Part shown: positions 9,866-45,812 of the stretch, piece by piece
How positions within the stretch are numbered: position 1 is the stretch's first letter
Layout of the letters: each line of letters starts with the position of its first letter
Origin: Candidatus Oxydemutatoraceae bacterium
GTDB lineage: Bacteria; Pseudomonadota; Gammaproteobacteria; Poriferisulfidales; Oxydemutatoraceae
Length of the DNA stretch: 64,000 nt
Assembly: GCA_965219575.1 (NCBI GenBank)
Contig: OZ244779.1
Span: forward strand, 1,036,769 to 1,100,768
Direction: 5' to 3'
Program-made: the position numbers and the translations under genes
Notes under the pieces: model-generated
The model's input: the letters and a program-made list of their open reading frames with translations, nothing else
Told to the model about the DNA's origin: nothing
The model's database searches: none

Positions 9866-9873
9866 AACAGACG

Positions 9874-11787: not shown

Positions 11788-11851
11788 GGGTTGTTGAAAA
11801 AGTACCGTTGGTGCAGAAATGAGACCGTCGTGTGCCATTGATTTTTGCAAA
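11788..11851. repeat. Truncated or minimal MITE-like unit between pgk and pyk
   Basis: GGGTTGTTGAAAAAGTACCGTT matches the element end at 44138 and the reverse complement of the end at 58964; the unit finishes TTTTTGCAAAC. Confidence 0.6.
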
Positions 11852-13054: not shown

Positions 13055-13083
13055 ATAGGTCTGAAGGTGAATTATCGTCTCAC

Positions 13084-22200: not shown

Positions 22201-25200
22201 GTTTGATAGAGAGCACTGCGACCGGAACCGTTACGGTTGAGAAGGTCGACAACGGTAATTTGAGCTTGTCGGCGACGGTGACGACATCGACGATAAGTAT
22301 CGAGATATTGGAAAATGATCCCGACGGTGCCGGTAGCGTCGCTTATACTTGGGAGCAGCGTAGTATCGCGCGCGCCGGTTGGCAACCGATTCTCAATCCC
22401 TCTAATAGCTATACGGTGCCGGCACAAGACGCAAGTAGTTTTCGCTATCGTGTGCGACTAAGCTATACCGATGCACAAGGTTATCCTTATACCAGCGGTG
22501 TGCTGGGTCCTTTTAGAGCCGAGATAGACGACGACGACGACGGTTTGATAGATATCTACTATTTGGAGGATTTGGATGCGGTGCGTTATCAACTTGACGG
22601 CACCGGCTATACCCCAAGCACCACTACGGTCAAAATCACCCGAGGTTGCCCCTTAGCCGGCGATAATACCGAAACCTGTTCGGGATACGAGTTGCGTAGA
22701 GATTTAAGTTTCACGGCGATGCAAAGCTATGTAGATGCGACGACGAATAGAGACGAATGGACGGTTGATAATCCCATGAACGACTTGGATACCGGTTGGC
22801 CCCCTATAGGAGGCTCTTTCGGTAGTACCTTCGAAGGCAACGGCTATAGCATTTCCAATTTGCAAATCAACAGAGATACGGTTGATGACTCCGATATCGG
22901 ATTGTTTGCGGTACTGTCGTCGTCGGCGAGGATAAAGAATGTCGGCCTATTGAATGTAGCCGTTGAAGGCAGAGGCTATGTCGGTGGTTTGGTTGCGCAA
23001 AACGAGGGCGAAATCGTCAATAGCTATGTGCAAGGGGAAGTCAAGGGAGCACAGCATAGCGTAGGCGGATTGGTTGCGTTTAATTCTAGTTCTACGACCG
23101 GCGTGATTGTCAACAGCTATGCAAACGCAACGGTAATGTCTACCGGTGCGCTATTGTCGGGTGGTTTGGTCGGCAACAATCACGGCACGATAAGAAACAG
23201 CTATGCGGCAGGTCATGTGAGTGGTGTTTGTGATGTAGGGGGTTTGGTTGCCGAGAACGGTAGCGGAAGTGAAATTATCAATAGCTATGTGTCGGGTGAG
23301 ATAAGCAGATCCGGAAGCTGTATCGATGACGGCAACCGGAATCGTGTCGGTGGTTTAGTAGCCGATAATGCAGGATTGATAAGGAATAGTTATGTGCGTG
23401 GTCGTGTTAGCGGTAGCGGAGCTATAGGTGGTTTGTTTGCTGTGGGGGCGACCGGCACGGTTGAGTCCAGCTATTGGGATAGCACGGTTAATAGTGGTAT
23501 TACTATCGATACCAATGCTAGGATTAGCGCCGATTTGCAAATGCCGACTATGCCGGGGACAATACCGACCGAGATTTATTACGACTGGAGTACTGCCGAT
23601 TGGGACTTCGGCGATATGACGAGTTATCCTGCGCTGCGTTATGCCGAGGTTGACGGTGTCGATTCTTGCGATAATGATGCGAATACGGCGTTGCCGCGTT
23701 GCGCTACATTGCTATCCGATCAAGCCGGTCGCAACGAAGGTTTGAGCGCACTGTTTTTCGTGATAAACGGTGCCGAGCAGGATAATGACCGAATATTTAG
23801 AAACCAGCCTTTTTCATCGTTGTTGTTCGACTACGATGTGGTAATCCCGAATACCATGAATTTTCAATTAAGACCTTATGCTATCAATAACACTACGATG
23901 ATTTCAATCGTCAAAGAAGCAGACACGAGCATAGACTATTTTGATAGCAGGCTTAGCGGTGAATCTAGTCTTGACATCCCCGTATCGGAGGGTATAAGTG
24001 AAGTCATAAGGATTACGGTCGACGGTGTTGTTTATACTTTGAATCTAAGGGTGAGCCCCGAGAATCCGGTTAGAATTACGAGCCTCGTCGCTGATCCGGT
24101 AGCCGGTAGCATTGTGGATGAAGGGCAGTCCGTCACTTTAATGTTTGCGGTTGCCGACGGTAGTAGCGATAATTATCGTTATTCGTTGCAACAGGCGGGC
24201 AGAGTGATCGCTCGGAGTACCGATACGACTACGTTTACCGCCGTCGTGCCGACGGACTTTGTGCAAGCCGACCTGACGACACAGAGCATCGTCTATACGA
24301 TAACGGTTGACGATAGTTTTAGCACTGCGTCTGCCGAACTGATGCTAATTGCTCGAAAGATCAATAACAGCATCCCGCAACTGGAATTAAATATCGGTCC
24401 GGCACTATTGAGCATAAGCACTACTGCGGATGCGGACGGTATCGGCACATTTATGTATCAATGGGAACGACGAGATCGGGTTGATAGCGGTTGGATAGAC
24501 GATTCTACCAGCGCCAGTGCTACGGTGCCGGCTAATTCCTCCAGTGAAATTCGCTATCGCGTGACGGTGCGCCATACCGACGGACAAGGAGATAGTAATA
24601 CCTATCGGATAAACCCGTTTCCCGTTATCGTTGACGGCGACAGCGACGGTTTGATAGATCTTTATTATCTGGAAGACTTGGATACGATACGCAATTCTTC
24701 GGACGGCAGCGGTTATGATATAGACACCGAACGCGACGATATCACTATAGACAAGAATACTCTGGGTTGTCCGAACGGTGGCTGCATAGGTTACGAGTTG
24801 AGCAGAAGTTTGGATTTCGACGACGATAACAGCTATAGCTCGACAGCCAACAAAATTACATGGACGACGGGAGCGGGTTGGCAACCGATAGGAAGTATTA
24901 GTAATGATGACTGTGGTGATTCGGCTAGCGATTGTTTCAATAGTATTTTTGAGGGCAACAATAATCAGCTTTCTAATTTACGGATAAACAGAGATACGGT
25001 TGACGATGCGCATATCGGATTGTTCACCGCAGTGTCGCAAGATGCGAGAATAGAGAATGTCGGGATATTGGATGTGGCTATTGAAGGCAGGGGCTATGTA
25101 GGCGGTTTGGTTGCTAGAAACGCAGGTGTTATCGTCAATAGTTATGTGCAAGGAGGAGCAGTCACCGGAACACAACATAGCCTGGGTGGCTTGGTTGCAA

Positions 25201-28200
25201 TTAACGACAGCGGTGTTTCAACACGCGCAACGATTACCAACAGCTATGCGAGTGTGATGACAATCTCTACCGTCGTGCTATCGACAGGTGCTTTGGTCGG
25301 TCGCAATCGCGGCGTGATTAGGAATAGCTATGCGTCGGGCAATGCGAGTGGTTCTTGTGATGTAGGCGGTTTGGTTGCCGAGAACGGCAATGGAAGTGAA
25401 ATCGTCAATAGCTATGCGTCGGGTACAGTAAACAGGTCGGGAAGTTGTAGCGATGCCACCCGTGATCGTGCTGCCGGTTTAGTCGCATATAACGCAGGAT
25501 CAATAGAGAATAGTTATGTGAGCGGTCGTGTTAGCGGTAGCGGTGCGGTTGGTGGTTTGGTCGGCAATGCCGAGCCGACCGGCACGGTTACGTCCAGTTA
25601 CTGGGATAGTACGGTTAATAGTGGTATTACCGCCGATGCCGATGACGGTATTGCGACCGGCACCGCTGCGTTACAAGAGCCGACTGCACCGGGGAGCATA
25701 GCAACCCAGATTTATCACAACTGGAGTACTGCCGATTGGGATTTCGGCACTTCGCGCACTTATGCCGTGTTGCGCTATGCCGGAGGCGACGACAGCGACA
25801 ACCCGGCATGCGATCTAGATCCCGATACACCACTACCACCGTGTGGTGCTTTATTGCTTGATCAGGGCGGCGCGGATAGAAAAGGACTGGGTGGTCTATT
25901 TTTCTTTGTTGACGGCGAACCTCTGGATATGTCGCTACTGAATAAGCCTTTCTCGTTCTCGGTATTCTCCGGCTATGTTATAAATTTAGAGAATAAAGCC
26001 TTAATTGAGTTATCGCCGTACGGGCTCAATGCTCGCGGTCAGTCTATTTCAATATTCAGAATGGGAGACACACCGCGCCGCGACTACTTTGACGAAAAGC
26101 ACAGTGGCGAGTTGAGCGAACCTATTCGTATTCCGAGAGGTAGGTCGGTTCTGACAATCGTCGTCGGAGATGCGCCCGGAGATCCCGATCCGGTCACCTA
26201 TAGCTTCACCGTGAACAATGAGGTAACTACGGTAGAGATAACCGATCTAACCAGCAATGCTACTATGTTGGAAGAAGGAGAAACGATCAACATAGAAGCG
26301 ACGGTGAGTGGTGGTGCCCGACTCAATTATCGCTATCAATGGACTGCCGAGCCGGCCGAGCTATTGGGCCGTGTGTCGAACGCCGACATCACGAGTCCTA
26401 CTTTGAGTTTTAGTATTCCTCCCGATTTCGTATCACTAGAGGCGACAACCCGAAGTGCCATGATTATACTGACCGTAAGAGACAACCTGTCGGAAAGTAG
26501 AGCGACCGAAACCGTGGTCATAGAGAAGGTCGACAACGGTGCTCGACTTTTTATGACGACGGTGACAACATCGGAGATAAACATTGCGACGGTAGCAGAT
26601 GATCCCGACGGCAACGGCGACGGCACGGTGGATTATTCTTGGGAACTGCGTAGCATAGACGATGACGATTGGATGTCGACTTCGATCGTGTCCAATCGCT
26701 ATACGGTGCCGGCACAAGACGCAAGTAGTTTTCGCTATCGTGTGCGAGTAAGCTATACCGATGCGCAGGGTTATGATTTTGATCGCCTGTTCGGTCCGTA
26801 CAGAGCCGATATAGACGACGATGACGACGGTTTGATAGATATCTACTATTTGGAGGATTTGGATGCGGTGCGTTATCAAACCGACGGCAGCGGTTATACC
26901 ACAAGTACTGCTACGGTCAAAATTACTCGCGGGTGTCGGCCGATCGATAATATCGAAACCTGTTCGGGTTACGAGTTGCGTAGAGACTTGGATTTTGCAA
27001 CCACCCGAAGCTATGTGAATGCGGCAAGGCACAGAGGCGAATGGACGGTCGATAACTTTGCCACCGGTAGCGACGGCTGGCAACCGATAGGGGAAATTCC
27101 TAGTGGTCTTTTTGTAGATTGTAATGCCACCGGTAGCGATTGTTTGAATAGTATTTTTGAAGGCAACGGCTATAGTATTTCCAATTTGCAGATCAATAGA
27201 GACCTTGATGGCGTAGGTCTGTTCGCCGGGAACAACGGAACCATTAGAAATCTCGGTTTATCGGAAATAAGGATAGAAGGCGGGAATCAGGTCGGTGGCA
27301 TCGTCGCTTCCAATGACGGGATATTGATGAACAGTCATGTAGATAGCTCTGTAGCCGGAGTGGACAGGTCGGTTACAGGATCACTCAGAGTGGGTCTTTT
27401 AGCCGCTGCCAATAACGGGTTAATCATCAACAGCTATGCGCGTGGTGATGTGAGAGCTAATACTTTTGTAGGTGGCATCTGTGGCTATAGCGGAGGCGAA
27501 ATTATCAATAGCTATGCCGATGCCGAGGTGGTGGCAAATAATAGCTCTGCAGGTGGTTTAGTCGGATTGATGAGCAGAATCAACGAAATTGATGCAATCA
27601 TCACCGATAGTTATGCGACGGGTTCTGTCGGTGCGCAGGATAGCCAAGGCAGCCAGGGCGGCATTGTCGGTTTCTTAGCGCAAAATACAAATATTAGAAA
27701 CAGCTATTCAACTGCCGAGGTGACAACAATGACCGCTTCTGCAGGTGGTTTGGTCGGTACATCCAATGCGAGTGTTTTCGATAGCTATTGGGATGTCGAG
27801 ACGAGTATGCAGATGCGCTCGGCAGGCGGCACTTCTAGCACGACCGCCGAATTGCAAATGCCGACTATACCGGGGACAACGGCAACCGAAGTTTATTACA
27901 ACTGGAGTCCCGATAATTGGGATTTCGGTAATACGATGAGTTATCCTGCGCTGCGTTATACCGACGGCGGTGTCGATGCCTGCGCTGCGAATCCCGAGAC
28001 GGCGTTGCCGCGTTGCGGTGCGTTGCTACCCGAACAGAACGGGCGCGACGAAGGTTTGAGCATTTTGTTTTTCGTAATAGACGATGAGGAACAGGATAAT
28101 GCCGATATATTTGTCAACCAGCCTTTTTCATCACTGTTGTTTAACTACGATGTGACGATCCCGTATACCGAGAACTTCCGATTAAGACCGTACGCTATCA

Positions 28201-31200
28201 ATAGCACTGCGGCGATTTCAATTACCCGAGCAGGGGATACGCAAGGCATCGACTATTTCAACGATGCGAGTGGTGAGTTAAGCGATAAAATCCCGCTACG
28301 AGGAAATATGACCGAAGTCCTGACGATTACGGTAGACGGTGTCGATTATACTTTGAATATAAGGGTCGGTCCCCAGGATCCGGTCGAGATTACCGATTTC
28401 AGTAGTGTGCCCGTCGCCGGAAGTACCGTCGATGAAGGGGATTCTGTCAGCTTAAACATAGAGATTGACGGGAGTAGCGGAGACTACGATTATTTGCTAC
28501 AGCCGGGAGGCATAGAGATTAGCCGAGTAGCGACTACTGCGACTTTTAGCGTCGTCATACCCGATACTTTTGTCGAAGCCGGCTCGACGACACAAAGCAT
28601 CACCTATACGATAACGGTTGACGACGGCTTCGGCACGGCTTCTGCCGAACTGATGCTGGTCGTGCGAAAAACCGACAACGGCGAACCGCAGCTGGAATTC
28701 AATGTCGGTGCTAATTCATTAGAGATAACACCTACGGTAGCCGACATCGACGGTGTCGGCACATTTAGGTATCGATGGCAAAGTCGTGCCGAGGGTGCGA
28801 ATGATTGGACCGATATTTCTGCAACTAATCGCTATACGGTGTCGGGCACTCCCGCTAGCACGGTCCGCTATCGCGTGATAGTCAACCACACCGACGGGCA
28901 ACAACATAGCAGAGAATATATCATCGGTCCGTTTCCTATCAATGTCGACGGCGACGGCGACGGTTTGATAGATGTTTATTATCTGGAGGATTTGGATGCA
29001 ATACGCAATCGCCTGGACGGTAGCGGATACAGCGTAGATCCCGGTTCCGATAGTATTAGCGTAGATAAAATCACTCTGGGCTGCCCTTCCGATACATGCG
29101 TCGGCTACGAATTGTTAAGGGACTTGAATTTCACGACCGAGCAGAGCTATGTAGATGCGACCGCGCAAGTTCAAGGTCAAACCACGCTACTAGACGAATG
29201 GACGGTGAATGATCCTACCGATGACTCGGATAGCGGCTGGTTGCCCATAGGAAGCGGCGATACTCCGTTTGCCGCCTTATTTAGGGCCGACAATCATAAG
29301 ATTTTTAATTTGCAGATAAACAGAGATACGGTTGACGATGCGCATATCGGATTGTTCGCCGCGTTGTCGCAAAATGCGAGGATAGAGAATATCGGTCTAT
29401 TGGATGTCGCTATCGAAGGCAGGGGTCATGTAGGGAGCTTGGTTGCTCAAAACGAAGGTGTCGTCGTCAATAGTTATGTGCAGGGAGGAGAAATTACCGG
29501 CACACAACATAGCCTAGGCGGGTTGGTTGCGTCCAATTCCAGTATGACCGGCGTGGTCATCAATAGCTATGCGAGTGTGACGACGACTTCTACCGAAGTG
29601 TTCTCGCCGGGCGGTTTGGTCGGCAGCAACCGAGGCGTGATTAGAAATAGCTATGCAACGGGTGATGTCAGCGGTCCTTGCGATGTCGGTGGTTTGGTTG
29701 CCGAGAGTTTTGTCGGAAGTCAAATCGTCAATAGCTATGCGTCGGGCAATGTACACAGAGCGGGTAGCTGTATGGATGACGGAACACTGGATAGTGTGGG
29801 CAGTTTGGTGGGCTATCACCGAGGATTGATAAGGAATAGTTATGGGAGCGGTCGTGTTAGCGGTAGCGGCACGAAAGGGGGTTTAGTCGGCGATGCCGAG
29901 AACAGCACGGTTACGTTCAGCTACTGGGATGTTGAGACGAGTATGCAGATGCGCTCGGCAGGTGGCACCTCTCAAACTACTGCCGAATTGCAAATGCCGA
30001 CCGCACCGGGGAGCATAGCAAACCAGGTTTATTTCAACTGGAGTACTGCCGATTGGGATTTCGGCACTTCGCTAAACTATCCGATAATTAGATACACGAC
30101 GGCAACCGATATCCTTAGCGAACCGGCGTGCGACGACAACCTCGACACGCCACTACCGCAGTGTGGTGGTGTATTGCTCGGTCAGGGAGATATCGGGTTA
30201 AGCAGTATATTATTCTTTGCCGGCGACGATACTTTGAATGAAGCGGAACTAGATCCGCCTTTCTCTCTCTCGGTATTATCCGGCTATACGGTCAACACGG
30301 TAGACGAAGTCTTGATCCGCTTATTGCCGTACGGGATCGATGTTCTCGGTGAGACGATTGCAATATTCAAAACCGGAGACACACTGAGCGTCGACTATTT
30401 CGAGGATAGGCGCAGTGGTGAGTTGAGCGCACCGATTCCCATTTCAAGAGGGCAGTCGGTTGTGACGGTTCGAGTCGGTGACGATCCCGACACGGTGGAC
30501 TATAGCTTTATCGTGAACAACGAGGTGAGCGCGGTAGAAGTAACGGATGTCGCCGGTGATTTCACTATGCGCCGAGAGGGAGAAACCGTTAGTTTGAGTG
30601 CAACGGTGCAAGGTGGTATAAGCGATAATTATAGTTATCGCTGGACCTCGGAGCCGGCTTCTCTGTTGGCCGGCTTGTCGGAAGCGGATATCACGAGTCG
30701 TACCTTAAGTTTTAGTATTCCCCTGGATTTTGTATCCCGTGATGTATTAAGTCGGGATGCCGAAATCAAACTGACCGTCGGCGACGGTTTTTCGGTAAGT
30801 AGTGCCACCGAGACCGTGACCGTAGAGAAAGTTAACGACGGTGATCCGAACTTCACGGCGACGGTGACCGCAGCGGAGATAAGCATCGCAACGGTAGGGG
30901 ATGATCCCGACGGCATCGGTGTTACTGTTTATGCTTGGGAGCAGCGCAGTATCGCGAATGTGGTTTGGGAGCCGATTCCCGGTGTCCCTAATACATCCAA
31001 TACCTATACGGTACCACCGCAAAACGCAAGTAGTTTCCGCTATCGTGTGCGACTAAGCCACACCGACGCACAAGGCAACCCTTTTAGTCAAGTGTTAGGT
31101 CCTTTTAGAGCCGAGATAGACGACGACGACGACGGTTTGATAGATATCTACTATTTGGAGGATTTGGATGCGGTGCGTTATCAAACCGACGGCAGTGCTT

Positions 31201-34200
31201 ATACCATAAGTACTGCTACGGTCGGCATCACCCGAGGCTGCCGGTTAGCCGGCGATAATACCGAGACCTGTTCGGGTTACGAGTTGCGTAGAGATTTGGA
31301 TTTTGCAACCACCCGAAGCTATGTAGATGCGACGACGAATAGAGACGAATGGACGGTGGATGATCCCATGAATGACTCGGATAGCGGTTGGCTACCTATC
31401 GGTTCTATTGTTAGCAACGACTGTGAAGACTCGGGCAGCAATTGTTTTACTAGTACTTTTGAAGGCAACGGCTACGACATTTCCAATTTGCAAATCAACA
31501 GAGATACGGTCGACGACTCCGATATCGGATTGTTTGCAGTGCTGTCGTCGTCGGCGAGGATAGAGAATGTCGGCCTATTGAATGTAGCCGTTGAAGGCAG
31601 AGGTCATGTCGGTGGCTTGGTTGCGCAAAACGAGGGTGAAATCGTCAATAGCTATGTGCGAGGGGAAGTCAAGGGAACACAGCATAGCGTCGGCGGATTG
31701 GTTGCGTCTAATTCCAGTTCTATGACTAGCGTGATTGTCAACAGCTATGCAGACGCAACGGTAATGTCTACCGATGCGCTATTATCGGGTGGTTTGGTCG
31801 GCAACAATCACGGCAAGATTAGAAACAGCTATGCGGCGGGTAATGTGCGTGGTTCTTGTAATGTAGGAGGTTTGGTTGCCGAAAACGGAAGTGAAAGTGA
31901 AATTGTCAATAGCTATGTGTCGGGTGAGATAAGTAGATCCGGAAGCTGTAGCGATGACGGCACGCGGAATCGCGTCGGTGGTTTAGTTGTCGATAATGCA
32001 GGATTGATAAGGAATAGTTATGTGCGCGGTCGTGTTAGCGGTAGCGGCACTATAGGTGGTTTGATTGGCGATGCCGAGGCAACCGGCACGGTTGAGTTCA
32101 GCTATTGGGATAGCACGGTGAATAGCGGTCTTACCACCGATACCAATGCCAGGATCAGCACCGATTTGCAGTCGCCGGTTGCGGCAATCGGCATCTATGC
32201 ACAATGGAACACTGCCGATTGGGACTTCGGTGGTACGACGAGTTATCCTGCGCTGCGTTATGCCGAGGTTGACGGTGTCGATGCTTGCGATAGCGATGCG
32301 AATACGGCGTTGCCGCGTTGCGGTGCGTTGCTATCCGATCAAGCCGGTCGCGACGAGGGTTTGAGCGCATTGTTTTTCGTGATAAACAGTGCCGAGCAGG
32401 ATAATGATCGCATATTCGGCAATCAGCCTTTTTCATCGTTGGTGTTTGACTACGATGTAGTGATCCCGAATACTGCGGAGTTTCAACTGAGACCGTATGC
32501 TATCGACAGCGAGGCAACGATTTCAATCGTCAAAGTAGCAGATACGAGTACCGACTATTTTGATGGCAGGCTTAGCGGTGAGTCTAGTCTTGACATTCCC
32601 GTATCGGAGGGTATAACCGAAGTCATAAGGATTACGGTGGACGGTGTTGCTTATACTTTGCGTCTAAGAGTGAGCCCCGAGAATCCGGTTAGAATTACGA
32701 ACTTTGTCAGTGATCCGGTAGCCGGTAGCATTGTGGATGAAGGACAGTCTGCTACTTTAACTTTTGCGGTTGCCGACGGTAGTAGTGTAAATTATCGTTA
32801 TTCGTTGCAACAAGCAGGCAGAGAGATTGCCCAAAGTAATGATCCTACTTTTACCGCCGTCATACCGTTGGATTTTGTGCAAGCCGACCTGACGACACAG
32901 AGCATCGTCTATACGATAACGGTTGACGATAGTTTTAGCACTGCGTCCGCCGAACTTGAGCTCATTGCGAATAAAGAGAATAACGGCGAGCCGCAACTGG
33001 AATTGCGCATCACGCCTACTTTCCTAAGCACAACTTCTACCGTAGCCGATGTCGATGGTGCCGGTACATTTACATATCGCTGGGAACGACGAGAGCGGAT
33101 TGATGTTAGCTGGATGGAGGTCTCTACGACTTTTGGTGTTTCGATACCTGCCGATACTCCTGGCGAGGTTCGTTATCGTGTGACAATAGACCATACCGAC
33201 GGGCAGGGATATCGCAATACCTATCTGATTGGACCGTTTCCTGCCGGCATCGACGGCAATAACAACGGCTTGATAGATATTTATTATTTGGAAGACTTGG
33301 ATGCGATGCGTAATCAGCTCGACGGTAGCGGTTATAGCATAAATTCCGGATACAGCAATATCATCGTAGATGAGAACACCTCGGGTTGTCCCGACGGCGG
33401 TTGCAGGGGCTACGAATTGAGTAGGAGTTTGGACTTTAACGAAGATACACACTACCTTGATGCTGCTGCAAACAAAGAGAGATGGACGACGGGTACGGGT
33501 TGGCAGCCGATCGGTGATTTTGATAATCCTTTCAGTGCGATATTCATGGCGAGTACCGAGAGCTTGACTATCTCTAATTTGACGATAGATAGGCGCAATG
33601 AGTCGGGTGTAGGGTTGTTCGGTGAGTCGTCGGGTCGCATAACCGATATTCGTTTAAGCGATGTATCGGTTAGAGGATATAGCGTAGTCGGTGGTTTGGT
33701 GGGTTCCAATAGAGGTCAAATAACCGCCGGTTCGGTAACCGGTTCCGTGGAAAGTGTGGACACATGGGCCGGAGGCTTGGTCGGCACCCATTGGAATGAG
33801 ATTAAGAACAGCTACGCACAGGTTGATGTGTCGGGGTATAGTTCGGTCGGTGGCTTGGTAGGCTATAGCTTCGGAACCATAGCCGATAGCTATGCCTTCG
33901 GTGATGTGAAAGCAAGGATCTTCGGCGGTGGTTTGGTCGGCTTTAACCAAGGCCCTATAGCTCGTAGCTATGCGAGTGGTAGCGTTGAGAGTGCCTTTTA
34001 CGCCGGCGGGTTAATCGGCTACAACGATAGTTATATAGATGCTATCGGCAGAGGTGGAGTAATTGAAAATGTTTATGCGACCGGCAATGTCATCGGTGGC
34101 ACTTATCTCGGTGGCTTGGCAGGTTATAACGACAGCGATATAAACAACGGATATGCGATCGGTCGCGTTATCGGAGGCGGTGGTTCGGGTGGTTTGGTCG

Positions 34201-37200
34201 GCTTCAACGACAACGAGGGTGTGATTACAAACAGCTACTGGGATATTGACACGACCGGGCAAGCAACCTCCGACGGTGGGATCCCTAGGACGACCGTGCA
34301 GTTGCAAATGCCGACCGAACCGGGGGCGACGGCGGATATGACTTATTACCAATGGAGCGATAGTGCTTGGAACTTCGGTAGTACGACCGAATATCCGACG
34401 CTCAAAGACGAGGACGGCAACGATTTACCGTTGCTCGAGACTCGGCTGGGTACATCGCTCGGGCTCGGTGCGCTGGTGTTAAGCGGATTACAATTATCGG
34501 ACGGTATGTTGGAACCGCCGTTTGACCCGACTAAGACAAGCTACGAGCTATTGGATCTAGCCGGCGAACAGACGACGATGACGGCGACGACGGCAGCGGA
34601 AAATGCAGTTATTTCTATAGAAGTAGATAGTCAAACGGCGTCTACGGGCAATCTGGCAGTGGCTACCCGAATAACGGATACGGTAAATAATATCGTTATC
34701 AGAGTGACGGTGTCAGGGCGTAGCACGGCAACCTATACGGTCGTATTGCCCGCCAACCGTCCGTCGCTGGCCGGCATACCTAAAGAACCCTGTAGTCTGA
34801 CGGATGTAGATCAAGACGACGACCGCCTGATAGAGATTTGCGACATAGAGGGACTGTATGCGATGCGCTATCGTTTGGACGGCAGTGCGTATAAAGCGAG
34901 CAGTGCGGCAGCGGAGATTGACAGCGGTTGTCCGCAGAGTGGCTGTATAGGCTATGAATTGATGAATGATTTGGACTTCGGTAATCCCGACCACTATAGG
35001 GATGGTAGCAACCGAGCGATATGGACGGTTACCGATTACGCCGACGATAGCGATAAAGGCTGGCGACCGATAGGGGATTTTGCCGTCTCGTTTAATGCCA
35101 CATTCAAGGCGAACAGTCATACGATTTCGGGTTTGCAGACCAACAGAGACGACAACACAAACGGCAGAGATTACGCAGGTCTTTTCGGGCATATAGGGGC
35201 GCGTGCGCAACTTGACGGGGTCGATTTGTCCGCTATAGATGTAAGGGGCAGATTTGTAGTCGGTGGTTTGGTCGGGCGGAGCGACGGTGGGACGGTAATC
35301 AATAGTTCTGTAGAAGGCATTGTAGCGGGAAGCCCGGTCATTAATTCGTTGGGTTCAAGCTGGATAGGCGGTATGGTAGGTTCTAATAACGGTGCAATCG
35401 TCAACAGCTATGCGCAAGCGAGCGTATTCGGACACACGACGATCGGTGGTTTGGTGGGTGTTGCAACAAAGGGTAGCGACATCCGAAATAGTTACGCTCT
35501 GGGTAGTGTGAACGGCATCAACTATGTAGGCGGTCTGGCCGGCTTTAATCAAGGTCGTTTTGAAAACTGCTATGCGAGAGTCTCAATCGGTGGTGTTTTT
35601 TCGGTTGCCGGTCTGGTCGCTTTGAACGACGACGAAGGTGTTATAAGGAATAGCTATGCTGTTCCCGACTCATTTTTTCCTATAGCCGGTTTGGTGGAGA
35701 CTAATCAGGGTACTATCATCGATAGTTACTGGCAACGAAGCGATACGGTAAGCAGTAGCGACGGAGGTATCGGTTTGATGCCGGAAGTACTGCAAGCGTC
35801 GGCTTCGTTTCCCGGATGGTTGTCGGCGAACTGGGATTTTACCGACGGTGAGTATCCGGGACTGAAGTATGCCGAGGGCGGCGATCCCGATAATCCTGCG
35901 TGCGAGACACCGCCGCCGGATACGCAACTGCCGAACTGCGGCACCTTATTGGCGAATCAAAGACTTGGACTGGAGCGCATAGAATTAGTCGGAGTCGAAC
36001 TGTTCCCGAATTTCAATTCTGCGATAAACAACTATTCTGCGAGTGTTTCCGTTGAGACGACGAATGTCATGATAGTCGTGAGCTCAAATAACGTAATGAC
36101 ACCGATAAATATAAACGGCGTTGAGGCATCGGGTAATGTTAGTAGTATCGTAAAATTAGCCGAGACCGAAGATACTAAAATTACGATTGCAAGCGTAGAG
36201 GATGCTACAACCTATACCGTCGTCATCGTAAAGCAGTCGGAGATCGCCGGTTTTGTGCCTAGCCGTTTTGCAGGACGGCCCGCCGACCCACAATGCAGAA
36301 ACTGCAATCCGACCGTCGACGGTGTTGTGCAGATACGCTTTGCCGACGAGACCTTATCGCAAAGTGGAGATAGCATACGGGTTAAGCTCCAATTTAGAAG
36401 ACTATTCGGTGGTGATGGCGATAGTCGCTATATTGCCTCCGCCGGTTTAGGTTTGAGATATAACCCCGCCGTTTTCGGCCAATGTACCCATGAACGTTCG
36501 GATTTCTTCACCGCTACCGATAATTACGCTATTTCGTTTTCCGATACCGATGTCGATGAGTTGCGTATAGCCGAGACAGGTATAGATCTAAATGCAGGCT
36601 CCGACGAATTTAGTGCGTTGGGTGAGGCATGGAAAGATTTGGTAACGCTGACCTGTGCGATACCGAATCGGGAGAACGAACTGGGAGCGGCAATAGCCGG
36701 TACCGCTGCCCGACAAGTTGTCTTATATAGGTACGACAGCGACGGTGATGCGATACCGAGTGTGGCGTTGCTGTCGGCAAACAACGATTTGCGAGGATTG
36801 AGAGCCGACGACAGGAGCTATGTGGAGGCGTATATGCGTCACAGCGACGGCAAGGGCGTACGCTTGAAGTTTTCCAAAGGTGTGGCGGTATTTCCCGATG
36901 TGCGCGGTGGCACACAATCGGATGCAGTCGCTTTGACGACCGACAATTTTAGTCTAGCTATGTCTACCGATGCGGCGATTAGTACCGTGACCCATGTGGT
37001 CGGTAGCCGCTATGTCAATATCGAGTTTGACCGAGTGGTGGTGAATAATATATTGAGGCTGGTCAGCACATCGACAAGCATAATCTACGATGTCGACGAC
37101 GCAATAATGCAAGGTGAGGCATTGGCACATGACAGTTTTGCTGCCGAATTGGCATACGACAGCGAAGCCCCGGTGGTCGAGCGTTTGGTTGAAAGTGTTA

Positions 37201-39953
37201 CCGTGGTTCAAGAAACAACGAGAAACATAATATTTAACAAGCCTCTAAACCCGGCGACGGTGAGCATAGAAGCCTTATGTTTGGCCGATGAAGAGGGTCT
37301 TTGTGCCGGCGACGACGAAGCAACGGGAAGCAGTATTACCTCGGTGGTACTGATGGAAGACAACAGCGTGTTGCAAGTAGGTATAAGTAGTGCCGAGCAG
37401 GTGGCAAGAGATGCTCGCATAGAGTTTAGACGCGGTGCGTTATTGGGAACCGATTACAGGTGGGTTGAAGAGTATCAAGTCGCATTGAGAGACCCGATAA
37501 CGATACCGGATGTTGTGGCACCGACGATCACGGTATCGGCGGTCGATGGTACGGCGAATATAGAAACACAAACGCATACGCGCATCACTTACGGTATGAG
37601 TTTCACGGTCTCTGCCAACGAACCCGTAGTCGGTTTGAATACGACAAGTTCTTACAGCTTATTGCGAGTCCCGGATACCGGTGATGCGGTGCTCGTAGAA
37701 AATGCCGTGCCGAGTACAACAACGGTATCGGGGACGAATCAAGTGACAGTGAGCTACAGTGGTATAGAGGTTCCGGTGTCGGATGTTACGAACACCAGAG
37801 GTTTTACGCTGAGAAGAACGAGCGATACATCGCTACAAGATTTATCGGGTAAAGATCCTATCGGGTCGTCCTCCGGCTTTTTGGACGCTACCGGTGTTAG
37901 CAACGGAAGTGCCGTAGCGCAGACCGGAGATTTAGATAATACGGCACAATTAATGAGTTTGAGCCTATCGGTAGAGAGCGAGAGCAGTCCATTGTCACCG
38001 CCCTTTGATCCTGCGGTTGCGGTTAGAAGTTATAGCATAGCAAATGTTGCAAATTCGGTGGGTGATACCACGATAAGCGTGACCGCACAAAACCCGGCAA
38101 ACATTAGACTAATAAGAATAGGGAGTAGCTCCGACGACGATATAGCGGTCAATGCGTTATCGGTGACCAGCGACGCCATACCGCTGGAAGAAGGTGGGAC
38201 GACGACGATTACCATCGTGGTTATTGCGCAAGACGGCACAACCGAAGAGGAATATACCGTTGCGGTAGAACGTTTGCCGAGTATGGTTGCCGACTTAGAA
38301 GCATTGGAGGTAGTAGGCGACAGTGGCACGATAGAATTGGATCCCGACTTTTCTACGGGTGAAACCGAATATACGGCACGAGTGCGAAACGATTTAGAGA
38401 CGATTTTGATAAACACGACGGCAACGCAAAGCGCGGCGACAATTCAAATCGCAAAAACCGAAATTATGGATAACACGCCGAGAATGCCTCGTCGATCGAT
38501 CTCCTTAGATCAAGGAACGACGACAACCATCGTCGTACGAGTAACTGCGCAAGACGGAACAACCACCGCAAACTATGTAGTTACGGTAGTACGCCTGCCG
38601 AGTACGGTTGCCGGCTTGGAAGCATTGGAGATAGTAGGCACTAGTGGCACGATAGAATTGGATCCCGACTTTTCTACGGGTGAAACCGAATATACGGCAC
38701 GAGTGCGAAACGATTTAGAGACGATTTTGATAAACACGACGGCAACGCAAAGCGCGGCGACAATTCAAATCGCAAAAACCGAAATTATGGATAACACGCC
38801 GAGAATGCCTCGTCGATCGATCTCCTTAGATCAAGGAACGACGACAACCATCGTCGTACGAGTAACTGCGCAAGACGGAACAACCACCGCAAACTATGTA
38901 GTTACGGTAGTACGCCTGCCGAGTACGGTTGCCGGCTTGGAAGCATTGGAGATAGTAGGCACTAGTGGCACGATAGAATTGGATCCCGACTTTTCTACGG
39001 ATGAAACCGAGTATACGGCACGAGTGCGAAACGATTTGGAGACGGTTTCGATAAACACGACGGCAACGCAAAGCGCAGCGACAATTCAAATCGCAAAGAC
39101 CGAAATTATGGATAACACGCCGAGGATGCCTCGTCGATCGATTACCTTAGATCGAGGAACGACGACGACTGTCGTCGTACGAGTAACTGCGCAAGACGGA
39201 ACAACCACCGCAAACTATGTAGTTACGGTAGTACGCCTGCCGAGTACGGTTGCCGACTTGGAAGCATTGGAGGTAGTAGGCGACAGTGGCACGATAGAAT
39301 TGGATCCCGACTTTTCTACGGGTGAAACCGAATATACGGCACGAGTGCGAAACGATTTAGAGACGATTTTGATAAACACGACGGCAACGCAAAGCGCGGC
39401 GACAATTCAAATCGCAAAAACCGAAATTATGGATAACACGCCGAGAATGCCTCGTCGATCGATCTCCTTAGATCAAGGAACGACGACAACCATCGTCGTA
39501 CGAGTAACTGCGCAAGACGGAACAACCACCGCAAACTATGTAGTTACGGTAGTACGCCTGCCGAGTACGGTTGCCGGCTTGGAAGCATTGGAGATAGTAG
39601 GCACTAGTGGCACGATAGAATTGGATCCCGACTTTTCTACGGGTGAAACCGAATATACGGCACGAGTGCGAAACGATTTAGAGACGATTTTGATAAACAC
39701 GACGGCAACGCAAAGCGCGGCGACAATTCAAATCGCAAAAACCGAAATTATGGATAACACGCCGAGAATGCCTCGTCGATCGATTACCTTAGATCAAGGA
39801 ACGACGACGACCATCATCGTACGGGTAACCGCGCAAGACGGCACAACCCCCCTCGAAGACTATACGATTACGGTAGTACGTTTGCCGAGTACGGATGCCA
39901 TGAATGCCATCCGCATTCGCGTCAAAGTATTCTTGGAAGGCCCCCTGCAATAG
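16227..39953 (+). CDS. Giant (7908 aa) exported repetitive protein with GLUG-motif modules and cadherin-like beta-sandwich domains; putative adhesin or surface protein
   Basis: Single 23.7-kb open frame with a GAGG RBS. Hydrophobic N-terminal segment ending LFA-Q. Ten DxDxDGLIDIYYLEDL modules followed by VGGLVG.N.G.I.NSYA arrays, then PFDP..T.Y-type domains. Confidence 0.9.
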   Translation: MIEIIISFYIFMIHKRQIEVDFRVSILLLCLGLLVAQPLFAQAPSFEMACNTEDIDDNDNGLIELCYLEDVAAIQRDGTGLRRGTATLAEGCPTSGCNGYELVRNLDFTTTQSYMTGVVNSNWILNAADFMGTARQGWDPIGSVANNDCSDSGSRCFAAILEGNGYSISNLQINRDGANEIGLFAGNTGTIRNLGLREIEVEGNNRVGGLVGRNEGNLINAHVIDSRVEGSANNAGLLVGVSRPSALIINSYVRGTVEGSRWVGGICGLNFGRIINSYAEVMASGVREVGGLVAENQHGTIRNSYAMGSAHITANDSENRRSVGGLLAVLWRVSDSNPNPSVTNSYSTVRVTGNLARNNVGGLIGNTNISDPLITASYWDTETSERTASPGGGTPQTTDGLQMPTAPGTMASDVYYQWSTDDWDFGTMQTYAALRYAIGDDNDNPGCDVEPDTPLPPCGALLSGQAGRDRGLNTLFFVINGDRQDNTRVFRDRPFSPLVFDYDIKLPSLQTTIELIPYAVNDTATISVFSASDQDDDLFMGRRSGQESRPITLQANTNETMMVEVDGLTYNFNLIRGPQPSVEIVSFGTIPPTGTVDEGDDIVFEAVFRNGSEDYQYSLQQGGTALGQGQNSTATVTVTIPDNLVAAGEETTQTIYTITVDDSFDIVSRELMLTVNKIDNGEPQLELSVSPTMLSITSSVDDIDGVGTFSYQWQSRDEGDSGWNNLPSVTNSQMVAGNSANTIRYRVIVNHTDGQGHGKEYTIGLFPRDVDGDDDGLIDIYYLEDLNVIRYQVDGSGYTINPESDNIIADKIVSGCPANTCTGYELLRDLDFTTARSYVDATAEVQDQTTVLDEWTVDDPMNDSDTGWLPLATADVPFASLFNGNNNNISNLQINRDTADDSDIGLFAVLSPSARLENVGVLDVSIEGRGYVGGLVAQNEGVIVNSYAQGEVAGAQHSVGGLVALNSTATGVIINSYANVRLMSAGALLSGGLVGNNDGKIRNSYAAGNVGGACDVGGLVAENGSEGEIVNSYASGAVNRSGSCGDDGTRNRAGGLVADNAGLIRNSYVRGPISAGGGTAGGLFAVGATGTVEFSYWDSTVNSDITADSTAQTTADLLSLPSETGIYTNWNSADWDFGTAMQYPLLRYTSPTDIAIAAVCDDDLNTALPPCGSILLAQGEKGLSNLLFFTGDDAVALNRPFSLSLLSGYTVNVEDQTTIELLPYGINPRGESITITQNTTNTDYFVGKLSGEQSMPIPISKGESVLTISVGNDPTDTNPVTYSVTVNNMVSPVQVTDVTGPDTAVEGDPISLSQTATGGIGVNYTYRWTSEPADFLDGQTVTNATLSFNVPTDFVLGENTSRSVVIKSIVGDSFSESSAIKTVNIVKDDNGNPDFRTEVTVSTISIEAVPGSDPDGDGMITGASWERRTVDDVEWMPIPGQTSAMYSIPTEDRGDTRYRAQVVYIDAQGYSHTSSVLGPYRADIDDDDDGLIDIYYLEDLDTVRYQTDGSGYRASNEATRSSRGCMPVDTTETCSGYELRRDLDFMTTRSYLVATMNRTIWTVNNFGTDADTGWQPIGSIDGNSCSNTSSDCFTGVFEGNGYSISNLRINRDSTTGSLSDNIGLFVGNTGTIRNLGLSGIKVHGHRRVSGLVGLNAGNLINVYVDEGEVEGRNNGVGLLAGRSEGLIINSYVRGTVFSAGRFAGGICGATLGSGISNSYAIVDVTAMGNIGGLAGDTLGPIRNSYAMGSVRLTANANSGLVVGGLVGVMAVFNEPSITNSYSTVAVTADNPTGNIISGLIGDRTEAVDASAISDSYWDSNTSMQTTSMGGGTSKTTVELQMPTNRTAEIGIYANWNSADWDFGTSQTYAALRYAIGDDNANPGCDADPDTALPQCGDLLPGQIATVLPIEITNITVPETVNEGDVINLSAAVMGGNSDSYSYRWTSEPASLLAGVSETDIANPTLSFIVPTDFVLGEASNRDAVIELTVGDGLIESTATGTVTVEKVDNGNLSLSATVTTSTISIEILENDPDGAGSVAYTWEQRSIARAGWQPILNPSNSYTVPAQDASSFRYRVRLSYTDAQGYPYTSGVLGPFRAEIDDDDDGLIDIYYLEDLDAVRYQLDGTGYTPSTTTVKITRGCPLAGDNTETCSGYELRRDLSFTAMQSYVDATTNRDEWTVDNPMNDLDTGWPPIGGSFGSTFEGNGYSISNLQINRDTVDDSDIGLFAVLSSSARIKNVGLLNVAVEGRGYVGGLVAQNEGEIVNSYVQGEVKGAQHSVGGLVAFNSSSTTGVIVNSYANATVMSTGALLSGGLVGNNHGTIRNSYAAGHVSGVCDVGGLVAENGSGSEIINSYVSGEISRSGSCIDDGNRNRVGGLVADNAGLIRNSYVRGRVSGSGAIGGLFAVGATGTVESSYWDSTVNSGITIDTNARISADLQMPTMPGTIPTEIYYDWSTADWDFGDMTSYPALRYAEVDGVDSCDNDANTALPRCATLLSDQAGRNEGLSALFFVINGAEQDNDRIFRNQPFSSLLFDYDVVIPNTMNFQLRPYAINNTTMISIVKEADTSIDYFDSRLSGESSLDIPVSEGISEVIRITVDGVVYTLNLRVSPENPVRITSLVADPVAGSIVDEGQSVTLMFAVADGSSDNYRYSLQQAGRVIARSTDTTTFTAVVPTDFVQADLTTQSIVYTITVDDSFSTASAELMLIARKINNSIPQLELNIGPALLSISTTADADGIGTFMYQWERRDRVDSGWIDDSTSASATVPANSSSEIRYRVTVRHTDGQGDSNTYRINPFPVIVDGDSDGLIDLYYLEDLDTIRNSSDGSGYDIDTERDDITIDKNTLGCPNGGCIGYELSRSLDFDDDNSYSSTANKITWTTGAGWQPIGSISNDDCGDSASDCFNSIFEGNNNQLSNLRINRDTVDDAHIGLFTAVSQDARIENVGILDVAIEGRGYVGGLVARNAGVIVNSYVQGGAVTGTQHSLGGLVAINDSGVSTRATITNSYASVMTISTVVLSTGALVGRNRGVIRNSYASGNASGSCDVGGLVAENGNGSEIVNSYASGTVNRSGSCSDATRDRAAGLVAYNAGSIENSYVSGRVSGSGAVGGLVGNAEPTGTVTSSYWDSTVNSGITADADDGIATGTAALQEPTAPGSIATQIYHNWSTADWDFGTSRTYAVLRYAGGDDSDNPACDLDPDTPLPPCGALLLDQGGADRKGLGGLFFFVDGEPLDMSLLNKPFSFSVFSGYVINLENKALIELSPYGLNARGQSISIFRMGDTPRRDYFDEKHSGELSEPIRIPRGRSVLTIVVGDAPGDPDPVTYSFTVNNEVTTVEITDLTSNATMLEEGETINIEATVSGGARLNYRYQWTAEPAELLGRVSNADITSPTLSFSIPPDFVSLEATTRSAMIILTVRDNLSESRATETVVIEKVDNGARLFMTTVTTSEINIATVADDPDGNGDGTVDYSWELRSIDDDDWMSTSIVSNRYTVPAQDASSFRYRVRVSYTDAQGYDFDRLFGPYRADIDDDDDGLIDIYYLEDLDAVRYQTDGSGYTTSTATVKITRGCRPIDNIETCSGYELRRDLDFATTRSYVNAARHRGEWTVDNFATGSDGWQPIGEIPSGLFVDCNATGSDCLNSIFEGNGYSISNLQINRDLDGVGLFAGNNGTIRNLGLSEIRIEGGNQVGGIVASNDGILMNSHVDSSVAGVDRSVTGSLRVGLLAAANNGLIINSYARGDVRANTFVGGICGYSGGEIINSYADAEVVANNSSAGGLVGLMSRINEIDAIITDSYATGSVGAQDSQGSQGGIVGFLAQNTNIRNSYSTAEVTTMTASAGGLVGTSNASVFDSYWDVETSMQMRSAGGTSSTTAELQMPTIPGTTATEVYYNWSPDNWDFGNTMSYPALRYTDGGVDACAANPETALPRCGALLPEQNGRDEGLSILFFVIDDEEQDNADIFVNQPFSSLLFNYDVTIPYTENFRLRPYAINSTAAISITRAGDTQGIDYFNDASGELSDKIPLRGNMTEVLTITVDGVDYTLNIRVGPQDPVEITDFSSVPVAGSTVDEGDSVSLNIEIDGSSGDYDYLLQPGGIEISRVATTATFSVVIPDTFVEAGSTTQSITYTITVDDGFGTASAELMLVVRKTDNGEPQLEFNVGANSLEITPTVADIDGVGTFRYRWQSRAEGANDWTDISATNRYTVSGTPASTVRYRVIVNHTDGQQHSREYIIGPFPINVDGDGDGLIDVYYLEDLDAIRNRLDGSGYSVDPGSDSISVDKITLGCPSDTCVGYELLRDLNFTTEQSYVDATAQVQGQTTLLDEWTVNDPTDDSDSGWLPIGSGDTPFAALFRADNHKIFNLQINRDTVDDAHIGLFAALSQNARIENIGLLDVAIEGRGHVGSLVAQNEGVVVNSYVQGGEITGTQHSLGGLVASNSSMTGVVINSYASVTTTSTEVFSPGGLVGSNRGVIRNSYATGDVSGPCDVGGLVAESFVGSQIVNSYASGNVHRAGSCMDDGTLDSVGSLVGYHRGLIRNSYGSGRVSGSGTKGGLVGDAENSTVTFSYWDVETSMQMRSAGGTSQTTAELQMPTAPGSIANQVYFNWSTADWDFGTSLNYPIIRYTTATDILSEPACDDNLDTPLPQCGGVLLGQGDIGLSSILFFAGDDTLNEAELDPPFSLSVLSGYTVNTVDEVLIRLLPYGIDVLGETIAIFKTGDTLSVDYFEDRRSGELSAPIPISRGQSVVTVRVGDDPDTVDYSFIVNNEVSAVEVTDVAGDFTMRREGETVSLSATVQGGISDNYSYRWTSEPASLLAGLSEADITSRTLSFSIPLDFVSRDVLSRDAEIKLTVGDGFSVSSATETVTVEKVNDGDPNFTATVTAAEISIATVGDDPDGIGVTVYAWEQRSIANVVWEPIPGVPNTSNTYTVPPQNASSFRYRVRLSHTDAQGNPFSQVLGPFRAEIDDDDDGLIDIYYLEDLDAVRYQTDGSAYTISTATVGITRGCRLAGDNTETCSGYELRRDLDFATTRSYVDATTNRDEWTVDDPMNDSDSGWLPIGSIVSNDCEDSGSNCFTSTFEGNGYDISNLQINRDTVDDSDIGLFAVLSSSARIENVGLLNVAVEGRGHVGGLVAQNEGEIVNSYVRGEVKGTQHSVGGLVASNSSSMTSVIVNSYADATVMSTDALLSGGLVGNNHGKIRNSYAAGNVRGSCNVGGLVAENGSESEIVNSYVSGEISRSGSCSDDGTRNRVGGLVVDNAGLIRNSYVRGRVSGSGTIGGLIGDAEATGTVEFSYWDSTVNSGLTTDTNARISTDLQSPVAAIGIYAQWNTADWDFGGTTSYPALRYAEVDGVDACDSDANTALPRCGALLSDQAGRDEGLSALFFVINSAEQDNDRIFGNQPFSSLVFDYDVVIPNTAEFQLRPYAIDSEATISIVKVADTSTDYFDGRLSGESSLDIPVSEGITEVIRITVDGVAYTLRLRVSPENPVRITNFVSDPVAGSIVDEGQSATLTFAVADGSSVNYRYSLQQAGREIAQSNDPTFTAVIPLDFVQADLTTQSIVYTITVDDSFSTASAELELIANKENNGEPQLELRITPTFLSTTSTVADVDGAGTFTYRWERRERIDVSWMEVSTTFGVSIPADTPGEVRYRVTIDHTDGQGYRNTYLIGPFPAGIDGNNNGLIDIYYLEDLDAMRNQLDGSGYSINSGYSNIIVDENTSGCPDGGCRGYELSRSLDFNEDTHYLDAAANKERWTTGTGWQPIGDFDNPFSAIFMASTESLTISNLTIDRRNESGVGLFGESSGRITDIRLSDVSVRGYSVVGGLVGSNRGQITAGSVTGSVESVDTWAGGLVGTHWNEIKNSYAQVDVSGYSSVGGLVGYSFGTIADSYAFGDVKARIFGGGLVGFNQGPIARSYASGSVESAFYAGGLIGYNDSYIDAIGRGGVIENVYATGNVIGGTYLGGLAGYNDSDINNGYAIGRVIGGGGSGGLVGFNDNEGVITNSYWDIDTTGQATSDGGIPRTTVQLQMPTEPGATADMTYYQWSDSAWNFGSTTEYPTLKDEDGNDLPLLETRLGTSLGLGALVLSGLQLSDGMLEPPFDPTKTSYELLDLAGEQTTMTATTAAENAVISIEVDSQTASTGNLAVATRITDTVNNIVIRVTVSGRSTATYTVVLPANRPSLAGIPKEPCSLTDVDQDDDRLIEICDIEGLYAMRYRLDGSAYKASSAAAEIDSGCPQSGCIGYELMNDLDFGNPDHYRDGSNRAIWTVTDYADDSDKGWRPIGDFAVSFNATFKANSHTISGLQTNRDDNTNGRDYAGLFGHIGARAQLDGVDLSAIDVRGRFVVGGLVGRSDGGTVINSSVEGIVAGSPVINSLGSSWIGGMVGSNNGAIVNSYAQASVFGHTTIGGLVGVATKGSDIRNSYALGSVNGINYVGGLAGFNQGRFENCYARVSIGGVFSVAGLVALNDDEGVIRNSYAVPDSFFPIAGLVETNQGTIIDSYWQRSDTVSSSDGGIGLMPEVLQASASFPGWLSANWDFTDGEYPGLKYAEGGDPDNPACETPPPDTQLPNCGTLLANQRLGLERIELVGVELFPNFNSAINNYSASVSVETTNVMIVVSSNNVMTPININGVEASGNVSSIVKLAETEDTKITIASVEDATTYTVVIVKQSEIAGFVPSRFAGRPADPQCRNCNPTVDGVVQIRFADETLSQSGDSIRVKLQFRRLFGGDGDSRYIASAGLGLRYNPAVFGQCTHERSDFFTATDNYAISFSDTDVDELRIAETGIDLNAGSDEFSALGEAWKDLVTLTCAIPNRENELGAAIAGTAARQVVLYRYDSDGDAIPSVALLSANNDLRGLRADDRSYVEAYMRHSDGKGVRLKFSKGVAVFPDVRGGTQSDAVALTTDNFSLAMSTDAAISTVTHVVGSRYVNIEFDRVVVNNILRLVSTSTSIIYDVDDAIMQGEALAHDSFAAELAYDSEAPVVERLVESVTVVQETTRNIIFNKPLNPATVSIEALCLADEEGLCAGDDEATGSSITSVVLMEDNSVLQVGISSAEQVARDARIEFRRGALLGTDYRWVEEYQVALRDPITIPDVVAPTITVSAVDGTANIETQTHTRITYGMSFTVSANEPVVGLNTTSSYSLLRVPDTGDAVLVENAVPSTTTVSGTNQVTVSYSGIEVPVSDVTNTRGFTLRRTSDTSLQDLSGKDPIGSSSGFLDATGVSNGSAVAQTGDLDNTAQLMSLSLSVESESSPLSPPFDPAVAVRSYSIANVANSVGDTTISVTAQNPANIRLIRIGSSSDDDIAVNALSVTSDAIPLEEGGTTTITIVVIAQDGTTEEEYTVAVERLPSMVADLEALEVVGDSGTIELDPDFSTGETEYTARVRNDLETILINTTATQSAATIQIAKTEIMDNTPRMPRRSISLDQGTTTTIVVRVTAQDGTTTANYVVTVVRLPSTVAGLEALEIVGTSGTIELDPDFSTGETEYTARVRNDLETILINTTATQSAATIQIAKTEIMDNTPRMPRRSISLDQGTTTTIVVRVTAQDGTTTANYVVTVVRLPSTVAGLEALEIVGTSGTIELDPDFSTDETEYTARVRNDLETVSINTTATQSAATIQIAKTEIMDNTPRMPRRSITLDRGTTTTVVVRVTAQDGTTTANYVVTVVRLPSTVADLEALEVVGDSGTIELDPDFSTGETEYTARVRNDLETILINTTATQSAATIQIAKTEIMDNTPRMPRRSISLDQGTTTTIVVRVTAQDGTTTANYVVTVVRLPSTVAGLEALEIVGTSGTIELDPDFSTGETEYTARVRNDLETILINTTATQSAATIQIAKTEIMDNTPRMPRRSITLDQGTTTTIIVRVTAQDGTTPLEDYTITVVRLPSTDAMNAIRIRVKVFLEGPLQ
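38272..39890 (+). repeat. Five tandem 321-bp (107-aa) near-identical cadherin-like repeats
   Basis: The anchor GATCCCGAC recurs at 38340, 38661, 38982, 39303 and 39624. Confidence 0.97.
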
Positions 39954-45784: not shown

Positions 45785-45812
45785 TTCACTATCTCCTTGA
45801 TAATTGTTGGGC

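Follow-up and report, generated by a model that had tools for sequence, protein, structure and literature searches.

In cellulosomes, the X-module-dockerin (XDoc) dyad fastens the scaffoldin to the cell surface through cohesin binding. In chaperone-usher and type V pili, a beta-strand at the end of one chain completes the Ig-like fold of another chain, by donor-strand complementation or exchange, and in outer-membrane beta-barrel proteins a C-terminal amphipathic beta-strand forms the beta-signal. Here we describe a short C-terminal tail that ends a giant repeat protein encoded in a 64,000-nucleotide stretch of Candidatus Oxydemutatoraceae bacterium (contig OZ244779.1; this whole stretch is the window below). 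We find, with high confidence, that the tail is real, conserved and strictly C-terminal. Its core motif, KVFLEGP, is identical to the start of a larger C-terminal module of FCB-group bacteria that is predicted to fold like an XDoc dyad. The most economical reading of these sequences, which we hold with moderate to high confidence, is that the tail represents the retained first strand of such a module. We propose, more tentatively and on the strength of structure models, a donor-strand or attachment tag as its most likely mode of action.

The tail resembles each of these systems only in part. Like type II XDoc, the parent module is C-terminal and joins an Ig-like sandwich to dockerin-like EF-hand repeats, but its sequence identity to XDoc is about 10%, and the window protein has the first strand only, without sandwich or dockerin. 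As in the donor-strand pili, a short alternating strand stands at the chain end and is placed by co-folding in a vacant strand-1 slot; in contrast to those pili, it is giant repeat proteins that bear the strand, its acceptor is a hypothetical one, and the window encodes no pilin, chaperone or usher. The tail shares with the beta-signal the character of a C-terminal amphipathic beta-strand, but it ends in Q, R or E instead of an aromatic residue, and the proteins that carry it are not barrels.

With the PEP-CTERM, GlyGly-CTERM, LPXTG and type IX secretion system (T9SS) signals, the tail has in common that it is a lineage-restricted element with which numerous Sec-type surface proteins end. However, as read by eye it has no hydrophobic helix and no PEP, GG or LPxTG motif. 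Unlike the substrates of exosortase, it lacks the PEP motif, transmembrane (TM) helix and basic cluster; unlike those of rhombosortase, it lacks Gly-Gly, a TM helix and basic residues thereafter; and unlike those of sortase, it lacks LPXTG, a hydrophobic helix and a positive tail. A T9SS domain is a beta-sandwich of 70-100 aa, whereas the tail has 14-15 aa. A scan of the last 200 aa against NCBIfam, with E up to 10, matched no T9SS or other sorting model, PEP-CTERM and GlyGly-CTERM included, and Pfam gave no known sorting model either. Thus, the statement in an earlier note on this DNA that the tail lacks the TM helix of PEP-CTERM, GlyGly-CTERM and LPxTG signals holds. The protein also differs from the RTX-type giant adhesins of type I secretion: it has a Sec-like N-terminus (by eye) and no RTX family in Pfam, and the ABC genes of the window are CcmA-like and LolCDE-like.

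A strictly C-terminal tail on giant repeat proteins

The giant open reading frame (ORF) that bears the tail (Table 1) has GLUG repeat units throughout (Pfam PF07581 Glug, 1.5e-54 and 2.7e-39) and, at its C-terminal end, 8 cadherin-like beta-sandwich domains (PF12733 Cadherin-like, 6.4e-76, 8 stretches). Its last cadherin-like repeats form a tandem array, and the tail starts immediately 3' of this array. Interior repeats run on as ...RLPSTVAGLEALEIV... where the last repeat switches to ...RLPSTDAMNAIRIR..., and the C-terminus reads ...VVRLPSTDAMNAIRIRVKVFLEGPLQ followed by the stop. The earlier note had reported, at 39903..39953, a basic tail after the last repeat of an extremely acidic protein. 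This description is accurate, with a protein pI of 4.18 (D+E 1028 versus K+R 465), three K+R and one D+E in the tail, and an array that ends at 39899; the tail does lie within the interval given, but position 39903 is that of the Asn codon that precedes it. The tail residues I-R-I-R-V-K-V-F alternate, and the motif occurs a single time in the six-frame translation of the window.

Other features of the giant ORF are the following. The N-terminus is also written ...LLLCLGLLVAQPLFAQA before PS at the putative Sec cleavage site, a by-eye reading, and to judge from the sequence translation may in fact begin at the internal Met of MIHKRQ. Each large GLUG unit begins with an acidic loop, D.D.DGLIDIYYLEDL.A.R, with 8 strict matches that start at 18537, 20679, 22527, 24633, 26814, 28947, 31119 and 33252; we take this loop to be similar to a calcium-binding EF-hand or dockerin-type loop. 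The tandem array comprises five near-identical 321-bp units, and its assembled copy number may be unreliable.

Table 1. Positions of the tail, its gene and related features (window coordinates unless a locus is named)
Feature	Position	Strand	Basis or remark
Giant ORF, 7908 aa, tail at its end	16227..39953	+	ORF calling, Pfam
Candidate Sec-type signal peptide	16227..16355	+	by eye, ...RVSILLLCLGLLVAQPLFAQA before PS
Tandem array, last cadherin-like repeats	38259-39899	+	Tandem Repeats Finder; 321-bp period, 5.1 copies, 95% matches
C-terminal tail AIRIRVKVFLEGPLQ, 15 residues (~14-residue conserved core of the family)	39906-39950	+	sequence
Core motif KVFLEGP	39924..39944	+	identical to opening motif of the FCB-group XDoc-like module
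TAG stop	39951-39953	+	frame without domain continuation
GPYEYR stub, ...GIQVNVKVFLEGPYEYR then stop	L051:7988-8026 and L079:7988-8026	-	also protein P0010
Module of alignment A1 (41 ORFs)	L013:7965-8663, L012:7965-8642, L063:7965-8753, L024:470-1159, 37 others		
Transketolase-GAPDH-PGK-pyruvate kinase-aldolase cluster	8852-16102		
Flavocytochrome c sulfide dehydrogenase and cytochrome c gene	44495-46484		

The tail recurs at the ends of many other proteins. When the final 46 residues of the giant protein were used in a word search, 7 hits came out of 14 candidates; all seven end in [IL]R[VI]RVKVFLEGPL[RQ], and the six that are named are proteins of 'Chromatiales bacterium' metagenome-assembled genomes (MAGs). 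When 185,579 species genomes were scanned for DNA able to encode VKVFLEGP, 94 loci were found. Six loci of 'candidatus Porisulfidus' MAGs terminate in ...R[IV]RVKVFLEGPLQ, and two further loci, one from Porisulfidus and one from another gammaproteobacterial MAG, terminate in ...GIQVNVKVFLEGPYEYR, the GPYEYR variant. In all eight of these gammaproteobacterial loci the stop falls 2-4 residues past FLEGP, in ORFs of 612 to at least 2676 aa. Single contigs can bear more than one such gene (three on OZ241323.1, two on CBDAVG010000002.1), and the tail-bearing genomes also include those of OZ244052.1 and OY843752.1.

We obtained the broadest sample with a profile of nine tails (A3), which was searched against 1.84 billion cluster representatives at E<=1e-3. 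Among the 55 proteins matched, 47 contain the motif, and in 47 of these 47 it stands at the extreme C-terminus, with 0-3 residues left (35 were read directly and the remaining 12 judged from the match table); the other 8 match only in the cadherin-like strand that precedes the motif. The family consensus is [IL]-[RKHQF]-[IVL]-[RN]-x-[KR]-[VI]-F-L-E-G-P-[LYH]-[QRE], then the protein ends, and the relatives of the giant protein all end at one common point. In all five carriers with the N-terminus in hand (the window protein, L008, P0026, P0003 and L051/P0010), a Sec-like signal was recognized by eye. A full-text literature search for the motif strings found no paper containing them. We took as chance matches a Poribacteria locus ending in ...VKVFLEGPRR (L037), which is a 115-aa ORF without a repeat domain, as well as 31 of the 96 ORF entries, which have neither the module nor a gammaproteobacterial stub.

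The giant repeat proteins that carry the tail come from sulfur-oxidising Gammaproteobacteria associated with sponges (MAGs of Porisulfidus and 'Chromatiales'); Porisulfidus is referred to as a known sponge symbiont in PMC12988363. Thus, the earlier note was right about similar tails on large proteins of sponge-associated gammaproteobacterial genomes, and its idea of a tag common to a family of giant surface proteins holds, in view of the terminal position in all motif-containing representatives and of the variety of last domains described below. It had also asked whether the motif might be terminal in this protein only, which is not so, and had proposed a pattern search in which many unrelated carriers would count as support; terminal carriers are indeed many, but most of them share GLUG or cadherin-like parts.

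The tail is conserved far beyond the sequence that precedes it. Averaged over all pairs (14 proteins, 91 pairs), identity reaches 0.89 within the final 14 residues versus 0.30 within the 86 upstream of them. Among seven genes compared, all 14 tail sense codons vary, and 12 of the 14 encode one residue in all seven; the stop codons of the same genes differ (TAG in 4, TAA in 3), as does the downstream DNA. Even the paralogues L021, L023 and L025 of one chromosome have tails that differ synonymously, which speaks against gene conversion as well as against an element acting at the DNA level. Since the same terminal sequence occurs in independent genes with different codons, the tail is not due to chance, and the codon comparisons indicate that it is under purifying selection as a peptide. 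We ruled out a DNA element rather than a peptide, because codons, stops and downstream DNA all differ, and likewise read-through or frameshifting into a hidden domain, because the downstream frames have no module and a convergent CsiV-like gene terminates at 40005, 51 bp past the stop of the tail.

The tail is also modular, in that it follows at least four types of last domain. In most carriers the preceding domain is cadherin-like, with or without GLUG, but Big_2 (P0042, P0044) and He_PIG (P0045) also occur, and P0038/P0051, P0054 and P0056 have no recognised domain before the tail. The GPYEYR variant sits on giants with Ig repeats of the ASH/HYDIN/DUF1573 type (L051, L079, P0010), an architecture unrelated to the GLUG/cadherin-like proteins.

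The tail and the first strand of an XDoc-like module

In other bacteria, the same motif opens a full module. We found it in this position in 57 ORF entries at 55 loci, mainly from Bacteroidota, Ignavibacteriota, Calditrichia, KSB1 and unclassified MAGs, with one MAG labelled Burkholderiales, and in 41 distinct complete ORFs it lies 185-251 residues from the C-terminus. Thus, KVFLEGP does open a domain in Bacteroidota, as the earlier note had stated, namely a C-terminal module that extends to allied phyla. The module has about 220 aa, with the consensus VKVFLEGPY..M.T.L...PL.QPY..PW.Y.G.E...VDWVLVELR...HRNHL..YDFT..., then two GD.n.DG.i...D repeats. Neither Pfam nor NCBIfam holds a model of it, and Dockerin_1 of Pfam appears below the cut-off in 2 of 4 module proteins (E 0.011 and 0.061).

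A search with the module profile, confined to proteins of 108-461 aa, gave 435 matches, and the best 120 of these are all 'hypothetical' or named for their N-terminal part. In these 120, the module starts with [LV][DN][LIV][KLT][VA]FLEGP[FY] (F in 106, L in 118, E in 112, G in 119 and P in 114), and it reaches within 25 residues of the C-terminus in 106. Only one of the 120 (P0117) has a module that starts after strand 1, probably owing to its start-codon call. The cargo before the module is mutually unrelated, comprising S8, M14 and M43 peptidases, GH9, lysyl oxidase, CotH, FG-GAP, PKD, MAM, cadherin and HYDIN-type Ig. Cohesin (PF00963) is present in a few module proteins; none was seen in the window.

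AlphaFold2 modelled the A1 module with a pLDDT of 90 and a pTM of 0.89, with strand 1 at residues 8-14. In a Foldseek search of the PDB, nine matches reach E<=0.001, and each of them is a type II X-module-dockerin chain from a cellulosomal scaffoldin; they include the XDoc dyads 4u3s_B, 4wi0_B, 2b59_B, 4fl4, 3kcp, 5g5d_B and 5k39_B (E 4.9e-5 to 9.4e-4, TM by target 0.34-0.63). The module is thus predicted to consist of an Ig-like X-type sandwich and dockerin-like EF-hand repeats, and to fold like a cellulosomal XDoc. In L005 and L018, module copies end after about 125 module positions, with the X-like sandwich kept and the dockerin-like part gone; thus, naturally shortened forms of the module exist.

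The KVFLEGP of the tail is identical to the opening strand motif of the module, [KLT][VA]FLEGP[FY], and positions 2-14 of the module hidden Markov model (HMM) align to the tail, with E-values that are weak (0.008-2.4), the match being short. The rest of the Ig-like sandwich (M.T.L, PL.QPY, VDWVLVELR, HRNHL, YDFT) is not present, since the stop falls 2 residues past FLEGP, and there are no paired dockerin-like EF-hand repeats in the tail. No remainder of the module was found in the six frames of the window, and the downstream frame is not module-like. We infer that the symbiont lineage retained strand 1 alone of an XDoc-like module. The earlier note had considered that homologs might continue into a full domain, which would make the tail a simple truncation. 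In evolutionary terms such homologs do exist elsewhere, but the tail is not simply truncated, because its relatives stop alike and it shows purifying selection.

Possible roles: donor strand, export signal, mesh or cap

If the tail acts as a donor-strand or attachment tag, Sec export would come first and leave the C-terminal tail free and flexible. The free tail would then insert by beta-strand complementation into an acceptor with a vacant strand-1 slot of an X-like sandwich, or into a comparable groove, and in this way the giant proteins would be tethered to the cell surface or assembled on it. A more specific form of this proposal, which we consider unlikely, is a split anchoring domain, in which the cargo holds strand 1 and a separately encoded, surface-fixed acceptor holds the remaining sandwich, perhaps with the dockerin part.

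Structure predictions are consistent with a strand that can be donated. In the AlphaFold2 model of the last 250 aa of the giant protein, two cadherin-like domains have a pLDDT of about 90, and residues 231-250 are at pLDDT 54-61, do not form a strand and are undocked. We co-folded a 32-residue tail alignment with a module from which strand 1 had been deleted (A1 residues 22-230), together with 3 controls; the score was 0.89 versus 0.01 for the best control. The co-fold mark is reached by 116 of 157 solved complexes and by 2 of 215 mismatched pairs, counts that apply approximately here because custom alignments were used. The runs share at least 94% of contacts, with a partner pLDDT of at least 58, and tail residues 16-32 contact strands 91-97, 139-146 and 166-172 as well as part of the dockerin-like region. 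The models thus show the symbiont tail to be compatible with the strand-1 slot, and say nothing on binding in the symbiont. The strand complementation or export that the earlier note had suggested is thus modelled with a stand-in acceptor from another organism, and no native partner was found in the approximately 190 kb searched.

Several points weigh against a retained strand that is donated to a partner. The link between tail and module spans 7-13 residues, and such a likeness could arise by convergence. The A1 modules were chosen by the motif itself, and the word index behind the search with 435 matches may favour motif words. Most carriers are related GLUG/cadherin-like proteins, which amounts to fewer independent genes, and the 47 representatives range from 54 to 6742 aa and include many fragments, such that this figure over-counts genes. 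The acceptor in the co-fold is a stand-in from another organism, made by splitting a domain, and such halves pass by likeness. A search for an acceptor with the full-module HMM, in six frames of the window and 9 loci (the 8 tail-bearing ones and L037), returned tails only. Moreover, no conserved neighbour or partner gene stands beside the tail-bearing genes among the window and the 8 loci.

We considered that the tail might instead be an export or sorting signal that is read, and maybe cleaved, by an outer-membrane translocation or processing machine, and not a structural anchoring strand. A signal of this kind would account for the fixed distance to the protein end in all motif-containing representatives, for the Sec-like starts, and for the position of the parent module, which occupies the place of a sorting domain after unrelated cargo. 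We nevertheless judge it to be unlikely, given that the tail has no TM helix or known sorting motif, that the last 200 aa of the giant protein match no sorting-domain model, and that secretion-system or sortase-like genes are absent from the window and none is common to the flanks of the other loci.

Less likely still is a surface mesh without a separate acceptor, formed by tails that pair among themselves or with domains of the proteins that carry them. The alternating residue pattern, the free tail of the monomer model and the several tail-bearing genes per genome would all suit such pairing, but the FLEGP turn, the most conserved part of the tail, is unnecessary for simple strand pairing, and the module HMM detected no acceptor-like domain within the giant ORF. 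It is also improbable, and markedly so, that the tail caps its own chain by completing or shielding the final beta-sandwich domain: although it always directly follows a beta-sandwich repeat, the domains that precede it are of at least four different types, and the AlphaFold2 model, in which the tail is free, argues against a cap. Finally, the tail might be what is left, without function, of a module that was deleted, and might have spread by duplication or gene conversion. This is very improbable and already disfavoured, since, even though the motif begins a full module elsewhere and L005 and L018 carry naturally shortened modules, the tail is far more conserved than the sequence upstream and shows synonymous change at 14 of 14 codons with almost no replacement even between paralogues of one genome, and since a second stub, GPYEYR, breaks off at almost the same position in proteins of unrelated architecture.

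Genomic surroundings and implications

Downstream of the giant ORF, the convergent CsiV-like gene is followed by mfd and a flavocytochrome c sulfide dehydrogenase gene. The remaining genes of the window are housekeeping genes, including a glycolysis/Calvin-cycle cluster, ccm genes, LolCDE-like genes and ComEC. The sulfide dehydrogenase genes and the glycolysis/Calvin cluster are consistent with a sulfur-oxidising autotrophic gammaproteobacterium. Two ORFs of 402 and 347 aa, at 59029-60237 (-) and 60206-61249 (-), have no match in Pfam (E<=1e-5) or NCBIfam (E<=0.01). The sole small ORF shared among the window and the 8 loci is a REP-associated tyrosine transposase. In the window, such a transposase-like ORF lies at 58130-58696 (+) (NF047646, 5.4e-13, below the cut-off); a 75% identical relative adjoins the tail-bearing gene of L008 (L008:9250-9645, -), where long arrays of short repeats lie on either side of it (L008:8047-13156).

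Cadherin-type repeat proteins are mentioned in sponge-microbiome papers, and no model matched in our searches accounts for the attachment of such giant proteins to the cell. If the split-domain reading is true, insertion of the donor strand would restore the domain, and any protein with the tag would become attached to the symbiont surface. A modular attachment system of this kind is not known to have been described in Gram-negative bacteria, and it would be relevant to adhesin display by sponge symbionts. The strongly selected 14-residue tag is itself a handle, as a synthetic peptide could serve as bait for the partner, and the motif can be used as a marker of the surface repertoire of this lineage in metagenomes. 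Beyond the symbionts, the FCB-group module, with its XDoc-like predicted fold and its attachment to peptidases, glycoside hydrolases and adhesin-like proteins, hints at an anchoring system that is widespread but unstudied.

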